Shown: one piece after another, positions 8,876 through 15,969 of the stretch
Layout of the letters: every line of letters begins with the position of its first letter
Position numbering within the stretch: position 1 is the stretch's first letter
UHGV virus genome: UHGV-0099062
Length of the DNA: 16,218 nucleotides
Origin: a virus
Strand: one strand, 5' to 3'
Notes under the pieces: model-generated
Databases searched by the model: none
What the model saw: only the letters and a program-made list of their open reading frames with translations
Told to the model about the DNA's origin: nothing
Position numbers and translations under genes: made by a program

Positions 8876-10294
8876 ATGCCGATTCAGCAACTTCCGCTTA
8901 TGAAAGGTGTCGGCAAAGACTTTAGAAACGCCGACTATATCGACTATCTGCCAATGAATATGTTGGCTACACCCAAAGAAATCCTGAACAGCAGCGGATA
9001 TCTTCGCTCATTCCCTGGCATTGCCAAACGCTCTGATGTGAACGGTGTATCTCGCGGCGTCGAGTACAACATGGCGCAGAATGCTGTTTATCGCGTATGT
9101 GGTGGTAAGCTGTACAAAGGAGAAAGTGAAGTCGGTGACGTCGCCGGAAGTGGTCGCGTATCAATGGCGCATGGTCGAACATCTCAGGCTGTAGGCGTTA
9201 ATGGTCAACTGGTCGAGTATCGCTATGATGGCACGGTTAAAACCGTCTCAAACTGGCCTACAGACAGTGGATTCACGCAGTATGAGTTAGGCTCAGTCCG
9301 CGACATTACGCGCTTGCGTGGGCGTTATGCGTGGTCAAAAGACGGCACTGATTCATGGTTTATCACTGACCTTGAAGACGAATCGCATCCTGACCGTTAC
9401 AGCGCACAATATCGTGCCGAGTCTCAGCCGGACGGCATCATCGGTATCGGAACATGGCGAGACTTCATCGTCTGCTTTGGCTCATCGACGATTGAATATT
9501 TCTCCCTGACGGGCGCAACCACTGTTGGTGCCGCTTTGTATGTCGCACAACCATCGCTGATGGTGCAGAAAGGCATCGCCGGAACCTACTGCAAAACGCC
9601 GTTTGCTGATTCGTATGCGTTCATCAGCAATCCGGCAACAGGTGCGCCGTCTGTATACATCATCGGCTCCGGTCAGGTGTCACCAATCGCCAGCGCGAGC
9701 ATTGAGAAAATCCTCCGCTCCTACACTGCTGATGAACTGGCTGATGGCGTGATGGAATCGTTGCGCTTTGATGCTCATGAGTTGCTGATTATCCACCTTC
9801 CGCGCCACGTCCTAGTATATGACGCATCTTCAAGCGCTAATGGTCCGCAATGGTGTGTGCTGAAAACAGGCTTGTATGACGATGTGTACCGCGCTATCGA
9901 CTTCATTTACGAAGGCAATCAGATAACGTGCGGAGATAAGCTGGAATCGGTTATCGGCAAATTGCAGTTCGACATCAGCAGCCAGTATGGGCTACAGCAA
10001 GAACATATTTTATTTTCACCATTAATAAAGGCAGATAATGTCATTATTAATGACCTTGAATTAGAAACATCAGGCGGCGTGTGTGATAGAATAGATAAAA
10101 TATTTATATCAGCAACAACAGATGGAATAAATTACGGCAGGGAACAAATGGTCGTATTGCAATCTCCATTTGTATATGACAATCGAGTCTTATGGCGCAG
10201 GATTGGAAGAGTTAGACGTCTCATCGGTTTTAAATTCAGAGTTATTGCAAAAGGCCCGGTTACATTATCCGGACTGTCTATTCGTACAACATAA
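8876..10294 (+). CDS. gp10: Tail hub / head-completion protein (P22 gp10 homolog)
   Basis: 472 aa, the same length as P22 gp10, with near-identity over long stretches as remembered (MPIQQLP.MKG.GKDF.NADYIDYLP.NMLATPKEILNSSGYLRSFPGI...). The last ~100 codons are AT-rich. Confidence 0.95.
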   Translation: MPIQQLPLMKGVGKDFRNADYIDYLPMNMLATPKEILNSSGYLRSFPGIAKRSDVNGVSRGVEYNMAQNAVYRVCGGKLYKGESEVGDVAGSGRVSMAHGRTSQAVGVNGQLVEYRYDGTVKTVSNWPTDSGFTQYELGSVRDITRLRGRYAWSKDGTDSWFITDLEDESHPDRYSAQYRAESQPDGIIGIGTWRDFIVCFGSSTIEYFSLTGATTVGAALYVAQPSLMVQKGIAGTYCKTPFADSYAFISNPATGAPSVYIIGSGQVSPIASASIEKILRSYTADELADGVMESLRFDAHELLIIHLPRHVLVYDASSSANGPQWCVLKTGLYDDVYRAIDFIYEGNQITCGDKLESVIGKLQFDISSQYGLQQEHILFSPLIKADNVIINDLELETSGGVCDRIDKIFISATTDGINYGREQMVVLQSPFVYDNRVLWRRIGRVRRLIGFKFRVIAKGPVTLSGLSIRTT

Positions 10295-10315
10295 ATCGAA
10301 ACTTAAGGAGTAGAT

Positions 10316-10861
10316 ATGTTAAGTGAAGATATTAGAGATGTAGTTGGTTATGAGGGGCTTTATGCGGTAACTCGTGATGGTAGAGTTTACTCTCACTCAA
10401 GGATAATAAATACATGCCATGGGGCTACTCGATTAATGAAGGGTAGATGGCTGAAGCCAGCAAAGGATGGGGGCGGATATCTATTTGTTGGTCTCTGTAA
10501 GGATGGAGAGGTTAAACCAAAAAAAATACATCGAATTGTTGCTGAGGCATTTATTGAAAACAAAGAATCTAAACCATTCATCAACCATATAGATAATAAT
10601 AATCAAAATAATAATGTAGAAAATCTTGAATGGTGTACGCAACATGAAAACATGCAGCATTGCTCTAGAAGCGGTAGGGTGAAAATACCTCATTATGTGG
10701 GTTCTGAACATCCATCGTCCAAATTAAATGAAGATATAGTTCTGGTCATAAAAAATGATTTGATTACGCCAATTAGCGAGTTAGCTGCAAGATATAATGT
10801 GACTGTTCAGGCCATACACGCCATTAAAAAAGGGAAGACATGGAGGCATGTGAATGGCTGA
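10316..10861 (+). CDS. Free-standing HNH homing endonuclease (NUMOD4 + HNH_3 + C-terminal HTH)
   Basis: NUMOD4 motif [18 protein letters not shown]; HNH_3 core [46 protein letters not shown]; C-terminal HTH-like [45 protein letters not shown]. Strong RBS AAGGAG 7 nt upstream. Hand counts on 60-nt samples give about 22% GC here versus about 48-52% in flanking genes. Confidence 0.9.
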
Positions 10862-11555
10862 TCCCAATCTCAACGTGCCAGTAACTATCCAGGCCACCCG
10901 GCTAGACACATCAATCCTTCCACGCAATATATTCAGCCAGTCTTACCTGCTGTATGTCATTAATCAGGGGGCTGATGTCGGCGCAATTGCCGGGAAGGCA
11001 AATCAGGCTGGTCAGGGCGCTTACGATGCTCAGGTGAAAAACGATGAACAGGACGTCGAACTGGCAGATCACGATTCAAGAATCACCGCAAACACAAAAG
11101 CGATAAATCTCCTTGAGGTCAGGTTAACAACCGCCGAAGGGAAGATAGTCGTACTGCGTAGCGATGTTGATTACTTGCTGGATGAGGTTATCGATATTCA
11201 GGCGCATCTGGTCACTGTTGACAAAAGACTGGATGGCGTAGAAAGCGATGTATCTGACATTAAGAGTGATTACGTATCGAAAACCGTAACCAAATTGCAG
11301 TCTCTTGCGTCACCGCTGGATGTAAAAACATCATATTCAGTTGATGGAATTCAGGTTGTTGGAGCAAGAAATACCGGATGGACTGCAGCCACAGGTACAC
11401 CTCTTCTTGGCTCATTCAACGCTAACCAGTCATACACGGTCGGCACTACGTACACACAATCCGAAGTCGCAGCTATCGCTACAGGTTTGGAGCAGGCGCG
11501 GCAGCGTATTCTGGCGCTTGAAACAGCACTTAGATTACATGGGTTGATTGACTGA
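10854..11555 (+). CDS. gp26: Tail needle protein (P22 gp26 homolog), trimeric coiled-coil fibre
   Basis: 233 aa. [36 protein letters not shown]...[31 protein letters not shown] and C-terminal ...[21 protein letters not shown] match P22 gp26. Start overlaps the HNH stop (ATGGCTGA); stop overlaps the gp14 start (TGATG). Confidence 0.95.
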
Positions 11556-12715: not shown

Positions 12716-14131
12716 ATGGCTACTTGGCAACAGGGTATTAATTCTGGTGGTTTTCTGGCTGGCATCGGTACGCAAAATGAGAATGCGCCAAAGGCAAGCG
12801 ACATTAACGCAACGCTTGGTCTGATCCGCGAAAACAATGAACTGGCTCGATCAGGTGCAAATAACGTTGGTCTGACCGCGTTACGTGGTCTGGCTGGAGT
12901 TGCTGATATTTATAAGCAGGAACAGCAACAGAAAGCTATTAGTGCGTTCAATAAGGTTCACGCTGATGCATGGGCTTCTGGTGATCCATCGGGACTATTT
13001 AAGTTTGCCCAGGAAAATCCAGCGTTTGTTGCACAGGCACAACAGGCGTTTTCCGGTCTTAATGAGCAGCAACGCAACGATATGGGCGAGTTAGCCATGA
13101 GGGCTAACGTCGCTCTTTCTCAGGGACCGGAAGCCTACAGTAAATTCATTACTGACAACAAGGACGGGTTAAATCGCGTGGGGGCGAATGCTGACTGGAT
13201 GATTCAGACAGGTATCCAGAATCCAGAGCAGCTATCACACATGCTGACTACTATGTCTCTCGGTGCGCTTGGACCAGAAAAGGCGTTTGCTGTTCAGGAT
13301 AAGATGGCTGGTCGTGAAATTGACCGAGGCAGGCTGGCAGAGACAATCCGCAGCAATCAGGCTGGAGAAGCACTTCAGGCGAGAGGGCAAAACCTTTCCT
13401 ATCAGTCAGCAATGACTGGACACAATATCGCAGCACAACGCTTGGCTCTGGATCAGCAAGAGTTCGGGTTTAAGATGCAGCAAGCACAGGAAAAGGCTCA
13501 GCAGTTGATTAGCGAAGCACCTAAGCTGTCAGTAAACATGGAAAAAGGCATCGAGACGGCTGTAAACAATGCTACAGCATCATCAAACTCAGCCAATTCT
13601 ATGAGTGCGCTTGCTCAACAGTTCAGAGCAGAAAAACCAACGACAGGTTTGTTCGGTAACGCACAGAACATGTTCGCAAAACTTACCGGAAGCGATACAA
13701 CATTGCGTGATTTGCGCATCCGCCAAAATGCCCTTGTTAACAGTCAGGTTCTTAAATTCCTACCTCCCGGCCCCGCAACGGATAAAGACGTTGAGATCGT
13801 TCGGCAGGGTGCACCAACTGACATGGATAACCCTGAGACGGTCGCAAGATGGCTTGATGCGATGGCAAACCTTGAGCGACGAAACGCGCAGTTTAATGAG
13901 TTTAAAGCCGAGTGGATGAGCGCGAATGGCAATCCAGGACAATCGCGTAATGGCGGTCAGATATTGGGGTTGGATGTTAAAAAAGGTGAATCATTGGGGA
14001 GTGCCGTTAAGCGGTATATGTCAATGAATACTGACGCAGCGCCAGCACAAGATTCGACACCTTCAGGAGAACCACGGAATCAGGTTGGATCATATACCTC
14101 AAAATCAGGCATTCAATTTACGGTGGAATGA
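12716..14131 (+). CDS. gp20: Ejection protein, P22 gp20 homolog
   Basis: 471 aa, the length of P22 gp20; position between gp7 and gp16; stop overlaps the gp16 start (ATGA). Confidence 0.9.
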
Positions 14132-15969
14132 TGAAAGTAACTGCAAACGGTAAGACATTTACCTTTCCTGATGGTACGAGCACCGAAGATATTGGCACCG
14201 CCATTGATGAGTATTTTGCTGGTCAGGCTGTTCAGCAACAAACAGTTAATCAGGCCAATAATGCACCAACACGGGAAGAACCATCATTGATGCAACAAGC
14301 TGGCGATTGGCTCACTGGTGGTCAAAGTGCAGGGCAAATTGCAGAACAGGCTGGTCGTGGTCTGGTAAACATACCATTTGACGTATTGCAGGGCGGCGCA
14401 AGTCTGATTAATGCAATCAGCCAGGGGCTTGGTGGACCCAAGGTTTTGGATGATGTTTATCGTCCAGTAGACAGACCGACAGACCCCTACGCACAAGCCG
14501 GTGAAACAATTGGTGGGTATTTAGTTCCAGGAGTTGGAACGGCAGGAAGCATGGCTATTGGATCACTGGCAGAGGCCGCAAATCAGAAAGGCGATTTCGC
14601 ACAAAATGCAGCTAAAAATGCCGGAGTTAACCTTGCCGCTCAGGGTGTTCTTTCCGCCGCAGCAAAGGGAATAGGGCGTGGAATAACGGCTATAAAAGGT
14701 GATATTGCGCCAGAAGTGGCGAAGAAAATTGCCACATCAGAATCGATGGGCGTGACACCAATGACATCTGATGTTATCCCGCCGAAAAATGCTTTCACTC
14801 GCGGCCTTACTCAGGATGCCGAGGGGGCTTTGCTCGGGACAGGCTCAAAGCGAGCGGAGCAATATGCAACGCGTAGTAAGCTGGTAAGTAATTATTTTGA
14901 CCGTTTTGGTGAGTACAACCCTGATGATGTAGTGAAATCTCTGACCACCACGTTAAGGGGGAGGAAGGATGCCGCTGGCGCTGTTATCAATGACGTCACC
15001 AATAAAATGGGTAATGCCGCAGTTGATACCACAAATACCATGAATGCTCTGAATACAGCGATCGCAAGACAGGAACGACTTGGGACGTCTGCCAATCAAA
15101 GCCTGCTTACATCCTTGCGTAACCTACGTGAAGAATTAGCAAACCCTGCAACTGATTTGGATGTTACGTTTGATCTCTTGCGTCAGCACAGAACAGCATT
15201 TAGATCTAATGTTCAGGGAGATGCTATGGTCTTCCCCAACCAGGCAAAAGCAGCTACCAATATGGTAGAGAATGCAATGTCAAAAGACCTTCGTAACGCA
15301 GTTGCTAAAAACCTCGGTGCATCAGACGCAGCAAAATACCTTAAAGCAAATTCCGATTATGCAAACGTTTATAATAAGGTGCTTAATAAAAACATTGCTA
15401 ACAAACTCAACAAGGCAAGCAGTGAAGCCAGTCCTGAACTTATAAATACCGTTGTATTAAGCAGAAAACCATCTGACGTGAAACGAATCTGGAGCGCACT
15501 GGATGATAAAGGGAAAGATGCTATGCGTGCAGCTTACGTCAGCAAAATAGCGGAAAAGGCCGGTGACTCTCCAGCCAAGTTCATCACTGAAGTTAATAAG
15601 CTGAAATCTCAGTCAGGCGGTGAAATTTACAACACTATTTTTTCTGGAAAGCACATGAAAGAACTTGATGCTCTTCATGAAGTTCTGCAGCAAACAGCAA
15701 GGTCAGACACCGCAAATGTAGTAACTCAGACGGGGCAATCGCAAGCCAACAGGATAAGGACGATTGGCGCAACTGCGACTCTTGGCGTATCAATGGGGCT
15801 TGAGGCTGGTTTCGGTGCAATGATGCGCTTGTATGAGTCCAAAGCAGCAAGGAATGCGCTCTTACGTCTGGCAAACACCAAAGCAGGAACACCAGCCTAT
15901 GAAAGAGCGTTGAGTAACGCTGCAAATGCCATCAGGCCGCTGCTTGCTACTGAGGCAACACAGCAGTAA
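14128..15969 (+). CDS. gp16: Ejection protein, P22 gp16 homolog
   Basis: 613 aa, close to P22 gp16 in size; last gene of the conserved ejection-protein trio. Confidence 0.9.

Follow-up and report, generated by a model that had tools for sequence, protein, structure and literature searches.

A Low-GC gp10 3′ Segment Co-Inherited with a Free-Standing HNH Gene Suggests a Mobile Cassette in P22-like Phages

The tail hub gene gp10 of the P22-like phage or prophage described here ends in a divergent low-GC segment, and this segment and the HNH gene that immediately follows it always co-occur. The two are inherited as one block of ~0.9 kb, which is identical between prophages with differing flanks and is present in at least four gp10 backbone lineages, and they share the composition of a low-GC genome. 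Judged from sequence comparison, gp10 combines an HK620-like body with a 3′ end of foreign origin. It is likely that positions ~9995–10918 constitute a mobile cassette, composed of the foreign gp10 end, a leader with a ribosome-binding site, and the HNH gene, which has been spread by endonuclease-driven conversion.

The stretch of DNA that was analysed (the window) comprises 16,218 nucleotides of the virus genome UHGV-0099062. It belongs to a P22-like phage or prophage in the HK620/CUS-3 group (Lederbergvirus) and covers the late (virion) operon, in which Pfam hits were obtained for KilA-N, the small and large terminases, portal, coat, gp4, gp10, gp14 (DUF2824), gp7, and gp20. The closest deposited phages are Escherichia phages HZ41, HK620, and CUS-3, with ~93–95% identity. 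The gp10 gene (8876–10294, plus strand) encodes the tail hub/packaged-DNA stabilisation protein of 472 aa (Pfam Phage_stabilise, E = 7e-281), whose matches in the PDB are Sf6 gp8 and P22 gp10, and the ORF of the tail needle protein gp26 is located at 10854–11555. The last large ORF (14128–15969) has no Pfam match and is assigned as a gp16-like ejection protein by position.

Base Composition and Sequence Break in gp10

The AT-rich character of the gp10 3′ end, to which a first-pass annotation of this DNA had drawn attention, was confirmed by shifts in GC content, GC3, and identity at this place. The GC content of gp10 falls from 51% over 8876–9990 to 36% over 9991–10294, and the low-GC island runs on from the gp10 end across the HNH gene to 10850. 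The block values given in that annotation for gp10 were reproduced on recounting (48.3% at 9181–9240, 41.7% at 9961–10020, 33.3% at 10021–10080, 30.0% at 10081–10140, and 40.3% at 10141–10294), and the jump to ~52% claimed for the start of gp26 was measured as 53.3% over 10854–10913. The ~22% ascribed to the HNH gene proved too low, as the ORF at 10316–10861 has 37.7% GC and a value of 20% is reached by one 60-nt block only (10555–10614). With a window mean of 48.7%, 304-nt intervals of 36.2% GC or less make up 1.2% of all such intervals, and every one of them starts within 9991–10570, i.e., inside the island. The only 300-nt bins below 41% GC in the whole window are those at 9901–10800, and ~10000–10850 is the sole low-GC region of these 16 kb; a mild dip at 15001–15600 (41–44% GC), within the last large ORF, is far weaker. 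In frame, codons 377–472 of gp10 have a GC3 of 25%, compared with 54% for the remainder of the gene and 57–60% for the same codons of gp10 from HK620, 683R2, and UPF_BP1. Across the cassette-type gp10 ends GC3 amounts to 18–25% and in the HNH gene to 30%, compared with 54–60% elsewhere. No promoter or terminator above shuffled expectation was detected in the AT-rich tract.

Identity to HK620-type gp10 drops from ~95% to ~54% across 9987–10005. Three gp10 genes were used for this comparison, of which those of HK620 and UPF_BP1 are without an endonuclease gene at the gp10–gp26 site and that of 683R2 is accompanied by a different one. In steps of 60 nt, their identity to the window is 90–100% through 9955, 75–82% at 9956–10015, and 45–62% from there to the stop codon, so that the collapse over the last ~100 codons, for which the first-pass annotation had suggested looking, is indeed seen. 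In the comparison with HK620, the maximum chi-square test places the breakpoint at 9987, as 47 of the 1112 nt before it and 140 of the 307 nt after it differ (Fisher p = 2e-65), and the 5′ boundary of the foreign DNA therefore falls within gp10, as had been claimed. At the protein level, identity to HK620 gp10 is ~99% for the first 376 residues and 62% for the last 96; over the 3′ segment, nucleotide identity to HK620 is 54%, dN is 0.35, and dS is saturated.

The gene can thus be divided into an HK620-type part of ordinary composition (8876–9987; 51% GC, GC3 54%), a left junction zone of the cassette (9975–10005), defined by maximum chi-square breakpoints and a variable-site map, and the divergent, HNH-linked 3′ segment (10006–10294, codons 377–472; 36% GC, GC3 25%), all on the plus strand. 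The HK620-type part is 93–96% identical at the nucleotide level to gp10 of E. coli elements with and without the endonuclease gene alike and shows no grouping by its presence. The cassette starts directly after a conserved coding block, GKLQFDISSQY..QQEH, and the left breakpoints against HK620 differ slightly by subtype (9987 in the window, 10005 in HZ41, and 9975 in O111, by maximum chi-square); a Buttiauxella-type backbone switches at the equivalent position of the gp10 gene, about 1130–1140. Among the deposited phages compared, HZ41 alone has the low-GC gp10 end (87% identity), and HZ41 also carries an HNH gene at this site.

The HNH Gene and Related Endonuclease Genes

The ORF at 10316–10861 (plus strand) encodes a protein of 181 aa with a NUMOD4 domain at residues 7–60 (Pfam 2.6e-8, 34.4 bits against a cut-off of 23.4), an HNH_3 domain at residues 70–114 (Pfam 9.4e-9, 35.2 bits against a cut-off of 24.8), and a helix-turn-helix-like tail at the C-terminus. 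I-HmuI (PDB 1u3e) matches this protein with E = 5e-12, and the motif NHID...NLEW..HEN aligns with the catalytic region of I-HmuI. The gene is best read as a free-standing, I-HmuI-like (NUMOD4 + HNH_3) putative homing endonuclease gene. It is placed between the gp10 stop and the gp26 start behind a conserved leader, ATCGAAACTTAAGGAGTAGAT (10295–10315, plus strand), in which the Shine-Dalgarno sequence AAGGAG (10305–10310) lies 5 nt upstream of the ATG. The last codons of the ORF (..WRHVNG) provide a GGAGG ahead of the gp26 ATG, and the end of the ORF overlaps the gp26 start by 8 nt. No intron or other RNA family was matched in Rfam at E ≤ 1 in 9500–11300, and a location of the HNH gene in a group I intron was ruled out by this result together with the ribosome-binding site of its own. 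No remnant of an original gp10 3′ end was found downstream of the HNH gene, the ORF of which goes directly into gp26.

Against relatives that are 80–86% identical, the HNH gene has a dN/dS of ~0.05, and such strong purifying selection indicates that the ORF encodes a working protein; the gp10 3′ segment has a dN/dS of 0.09 among the cassette alleles. Three HNH subtypes can be distinguished (those of the window, of HZ41/SCU-124, and of O111), which are only 44–56% identical to each other in amino acid sequence but have the same leader and agree in their first ~30 and last six residues. The gp10 segments beside them, on the other hand, are 85–98% identical, which means that the endonuclease core has been swapped within a conserved frame and that the unit is not strictly clonal. 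The leader is kept in all three subtypes, in distant lineages, and in a paralogous endonuclease gene at the 5′ side of gp10.

In phage UPF_BP1 and in some E. coli prophages, this second NUMOD4-HNH gene, encoding 194 aa, separates gp4 from gp10 (outside the window; L009 2893–3618 and 3566–4984, L004 1918–3868, and L012 1198–3289). Upstream of it lies a 93-nt remnant of an ordinary gp10 5′ end, 98% identical to HK620 and followed by stop codons, and downstream of it a complete gp10 with only ~60% identity over its first ~120 nt, an arrangement that mirrors the cassette of the window. The leader region (AAATCGAAAC..AAGGAGTAGATATG) is common to the 3′-site and 5′-site genes (window 10295–10400; L004 1896–2060; L001 2920–3080). 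The 5′-site and HZ41-type HNH proteins are near identical over the first 47 residues and only ~55% identical over the remainder, which points to domain shuffling among these paralogues. In OZ040490, gp10 is bracketed by both endonuclease genes. Furthermore, in phage vB_EcoP-683R2 the gp10–gp26 junction is occupied by an unrelated HNH_3+AP2 ORF (L002 2922–3416), annotated as 'endolysin', beside a gp10 end of normal GC content, and the final ~14 nt of gp10 (AGGATTGAGTAATG) recur at the 3′ end of this ORF. This junction is thus a recurrent insertion site for different endonuclease families.

Linkage and Block Inheritance

A survey of 5,426 complete E. coli genomes returned 914 with a match to the gp10/gp26 region. 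The AT-rich gp10 allele is present in 56 of these 914, and a NUMOD4-HNH gene lies immediately downstream in 56 of 56. The gene is annotated in 53 of them; in the other three, IS1 (E. coli M160133; L006 3342–4039) or IS3 (ETEC6333/6334; L005 3378–4606) is inserted in the leader or the HNH 5′ end with the HNH sequence still there, and these insertions explain all three seeming exceptions. In IMG/VR, the cassette-type gp10 pattern was found in 26 contigs and the HNH-leader pattern in 26, giving 29 contigs in total, and both parts are present in every readable one. The same pairing occurs in phage HZ41 and in three more distant P22-like lineages. The first-pass annotation had raised the case of an AT-rich gp10 end that lacks a downstream HNH gene, and none was encountered among the 56 E. 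coli genomes or the readable IMG/VR contigs. As for normal gp10 ends, distant blastn could overlook very divergent HNH genes adjoining them, and the HNH-AP2 gene of 683R2 is one case of an unrelated type. The insertion is polymorphic for presence and absence at a fixed site, as gp10 abuts gp26 directly in HK620, CUS-3, Sf6, P22, and others.

Sequence flanking the endonuclease gene is co-inherited with it, as can be seen from identical tracts in diverged flanks and from incongruent trees. The window is identical to the E. coli prophage OZ501607 over 9995–10903 and to KE40 and AF46 over 9995–10918, and it has one difference from PEC011 over 9944–10918. The tracts shared with these four prophages are 909–975 nt long with the HNH gene at their centre, and they are flanked by sequence with 4–11 differences per 100 nt in the remainder of gp10 and up to 16 in gp26 past the tract; at a background divergence of 6.5%, the chance expectation for an identical run of 909 nt is ~2e-27. 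In addition, HZ41 and E. coli A39 are identical over 9998–10875 save for one difference. The ends of the tracts differ by tens of bases, which may be explained by independent conversion or recombination events that were resolved just beyond the non-homologous core. At the right end, the identical tract and the junction alignment show that the first ~50–65 nt of gp26 (10854–10918, plus strand) have moved with the window-type cassette, which carries along a private variant of the gp26 start, MADPNLN instead of MADSNLN. The first ~55 nt of gp26 (10854–10915) exist in several shuffled variants among phages, whatever the endonuclease status.

The block has also entered other backbones. HNH homologues with 76–86% identity to that of the window occupy the equivalent position between gp10 and gp26 in the P22-like elements L029, L030, and L032, the gp10 proteins of which are only 71–79% identical to that of the window in their N-parts and 86–89% identical in their C-parts; the GC content of these C-parts is 37–41%, compared with 53%. 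The N-part of L029 gp10 is 96% identical in amino acid sequence to gp10 of a Buttiauxella prophage that lacks the endonuclease gene, whereas its C-part is 66% identical to that protein and 89% identical to the window. In neighbour-joining trees with bootstrap, built on a simple distance measure, the N-parts of the window, HZ41, and O111 fall together with those of HK620 and Sf6, and that of L029 with Buttiauxella. In the C-part tree, all six alleles linked to the endonuclease gene are united in a single clade (100% bootstrap) that branches outside the remaining Enterobacterales sequences, among them those of APSE and Proteus phage Brookers. The separate phylogenies of the two gp10 parts that the first-pass annotation had called for are therefore incongruent.

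The same patterns could in principle have been produced by ordinary mosaicism, in which the C-terminal module was swapped by general recombination and the HNH gene sits at the module boundary without any causal role. P22-like gp10 and gp26 are highly mosaic, the gp10 body shows star-like identities of 93–96%, the gp26 5′ variants are shuffled irrespective of the endonuclease gene, and nuclease genes are known at exchange boundaries (PMC10055350). We nevertheless consider this explanation improbable, because no dataset that was analysed contains an exception to the linkage in either direction, because the identical tracts have the HNH gene in their middle and only short flanks beside it, and because strong purifying selection on the HNH ORF is unexpected for an inert passenger. 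Transfer of the cassette driven by the endonuclease accounts better for these observations; it is deduced from patterns in populations, and part of these patterns could stem from ordinary homologous recombination between P22-like prophages, which are highly mosaic.

Origin of the gp10 3′ Segment

Ordinarily, no part of gp10 is better conserved than its last 96 residues. The C-parts of HK620 and APSE-7 gp10 are 74% identical and their N-parts 57%, and the corresponding values for HK620 and Brookers are 78% and 51%. In contrast, the C-terminus encoded by the cassette is only 56–67% identical in amino acid sequence to all sampled gp10 proteins, including those of the low-GC elements APSE, Brookers, and L014. 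Searches for a donor by blastn in distant mode against phages returned HZ41 only, and tblastn against phages gave identities of at most 68% beyond HZ41. The protein database contained copies of the cassette or hits of at most 71%, and no match above 65% was found among 185,579 species-representative genomes, one per species. The hit of 71%, in L013, was rejected as a donor because it is an error-ridden copy of the cassette itself, and short gp10 C-terminal ORFs on the long contigs P0010 and P0012, considered as split genes, turned out to be frameshifted or unrelated P22-like genes.

The segment probably derives from an unsampled low-GC P22-like phage. A foreign origin is favoured over recoding in place by the near-equal distance of the allele from all lineages, by a GC3 that matches the HNH gene, and by the dN/dS of 0.09. 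Divergence in place would mean that a local gp10 end evolved fast after the arrival of the endonuclease, under selection for escape from cleavage and AT-biased mutation. The lack of a donor among the species-representative genomes would fit such a course, as would the otherwise high conservation of the C-terminus, which makes it a plausible endonuclease target, and the bias of the substitutions from HK620 to the window (69 GC-to-AT and 31 AT-to-GC). However, a recoded local allele would be expected to lie nearest to HK620 or P22, and this one does not; it branches outside every sampled Enterobacterales gp10 C-terminus, its dN of 0.35 is far above what immunity would need while dN/dS within the cassette clade is normal, and its GC3 fits a common origin with the adjoining HNH gene. 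We therefore regard divergence in place as very unlikely.

Structural co-adaptation, by which the gp10 C-terminus was swapped to suit the gp26 N-terminus or another partner and the HNH linkage is incidental, is hardly credible, as its one support, the movement of the first ~50 nt of gp26 with the window-type cassette, is countered by the occurrence of the same gp10 end with the 702-nt HK620-type needle, with the 849-nt knob type (A39, M160133), and with P22-like or other needle types (L030, L032, L063), and by the Sf6 tail structure, in which the needle is contacted by propeller blade 2 and not by the C-terminal extension (PMC9728967). In the Sf6 tail, the N- and C-terminal extensions build the apical insertion domain (PMC9728967).

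Proposed Mechanism of Cassette Transfer

A possible mechanism for the spread of the cassette by endonuclease-driven conversion begins with a cassette-bearing and a cassette-free P22-like genome meeting in one cell, either by co-infection or by infection of a lysogen. The cassette-free allele may then be nicked or cut by the endonuclease, either within or close to the 3′ end of gp10 or where gp10 meets gp26, and repair would copy the endonuclease gene out of the cassette-bearing genome. On the left side, 290 nt that are ~54% identical to the recipient could allow resolution only upstream of ~10005; because this stretch would be too divergent to recombine, the whole AT-rich gp10 end would always be brought along. 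On the right side, homology resumes from the gp26 ATG, and conversion tracts could stop within 20–65 nt. The AT-rich gp10 segment probably renders the carrier resistant to its own enzyme. An endonuclease target at the gp10 end is possible, and since carriers resemble HK620 as far as ~10005 and from the gp26 start onward, any target spared in carriers would overlap the equivalent of 10006–10294 or the gp10–gp26 junction. The first-pass annotation had proposed gene conversion that replaces the gp10 C-terminus along with the endonuclease. Co-transfer of the two is supported by the present data, but a variable conversion tract from a recent donor is not; as only the last 10–60 nt on either side vary, the segment is rather a fixed and old component of the cassette.

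A further reading, to which we assign less than even weight, is that the AT-rich gp10 end is the immunity determinant of the cassette, not a passive passenger, and that the nuclease recognises the gp10 C-terminal coding region. The cassette may then provide a functional, cleavage-resistant substitute for its own target, and the nuclease and the resistant allele may have lasted together through at least three exchanged cores and entered at least four P22-like lineages. The mirror-image cassette at the gp10 5′ end, with its HNH gene, recoded N-terminus, and 93-nt remnant of the old start, may work alike. If this reading is true, prophage copies of the cassette could act against superinfecting relatives.

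The cassette accounts for one sharp mosaic boundary in gp10, and its presence shows that the tail hub tolerates a C-terminus with 38% divergence. The locus offers a tractable system for asking if conversion between prophages and infecting phages is driven by HNH enzymes of the free-standing type.

Comparison with Known Systems

No earlier description of an endonuclease gene at the gp10–gp26 site of P22-like phages was found in the searchable literature. The closest parallel is provided by the T-even phages, in which free-standing endonucleases cleave at sites hundreds of bp away from the genes that encode them, and the stretch between is co-converted, resulting in marker exclusion (PMC2988022). 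As in those phages, the endonuclease gene of the window lies between essential genes, and the neighbouring segment differs between carriers and non-carriers and is co-inherited with the gene. In contrast to the T-even systems, the element resides in a temperate P22-like podovirus or prophage, and the putative enzyme is of the NUMOD4-HNH type and not a GIY-YIG Seg or Mob enzyme. The segment is a fixed block of 290 nt that is ~46% divergent and compositionally foreign, whereas the T-even tract is graded.

I-HmuI and I-HmuII, intron-encoded HNH nicking enzymes of the Bacillus phages SPO1 and SP82, show homology to the protein of the window in the N-terminal DNA-binding and HNH regions and have been linked with the exclusion of flanking markers. 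The layout of an N-terminal domain, an HNH motif, and a C-terminal helix-turn-helix-like tail is shared with I-HmuI. Contrary to I-HmuI, the HNH gene of the window lies outside any intron and has its own ribosome-binding site between two ORFs. In the HEG islands reported from ICP1 and further phages, endonuclease genes likewise adjoin essential structural genes and bound exchanged blocks of high identity (PMC10055350), and domain shuffling among paralogues is a further likeness. The block described here differs in being small (~0.9 kb) and in including a partial gene, and gp10 is flanked by two endonuclease genes in one related genome only, OZ040490.

The cassette counts as one more case of intronless homing with co-conversion, a kind of system already known; as the principle is established in T-even phages, the conceptual advance is modest. 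It provides a population-level case, from the temperate P22-like phages and prophages of E. coli and its relatives, of a selfish endonuclease gene tied permanently to a stretch of foreign sequence in an essential virion gene.
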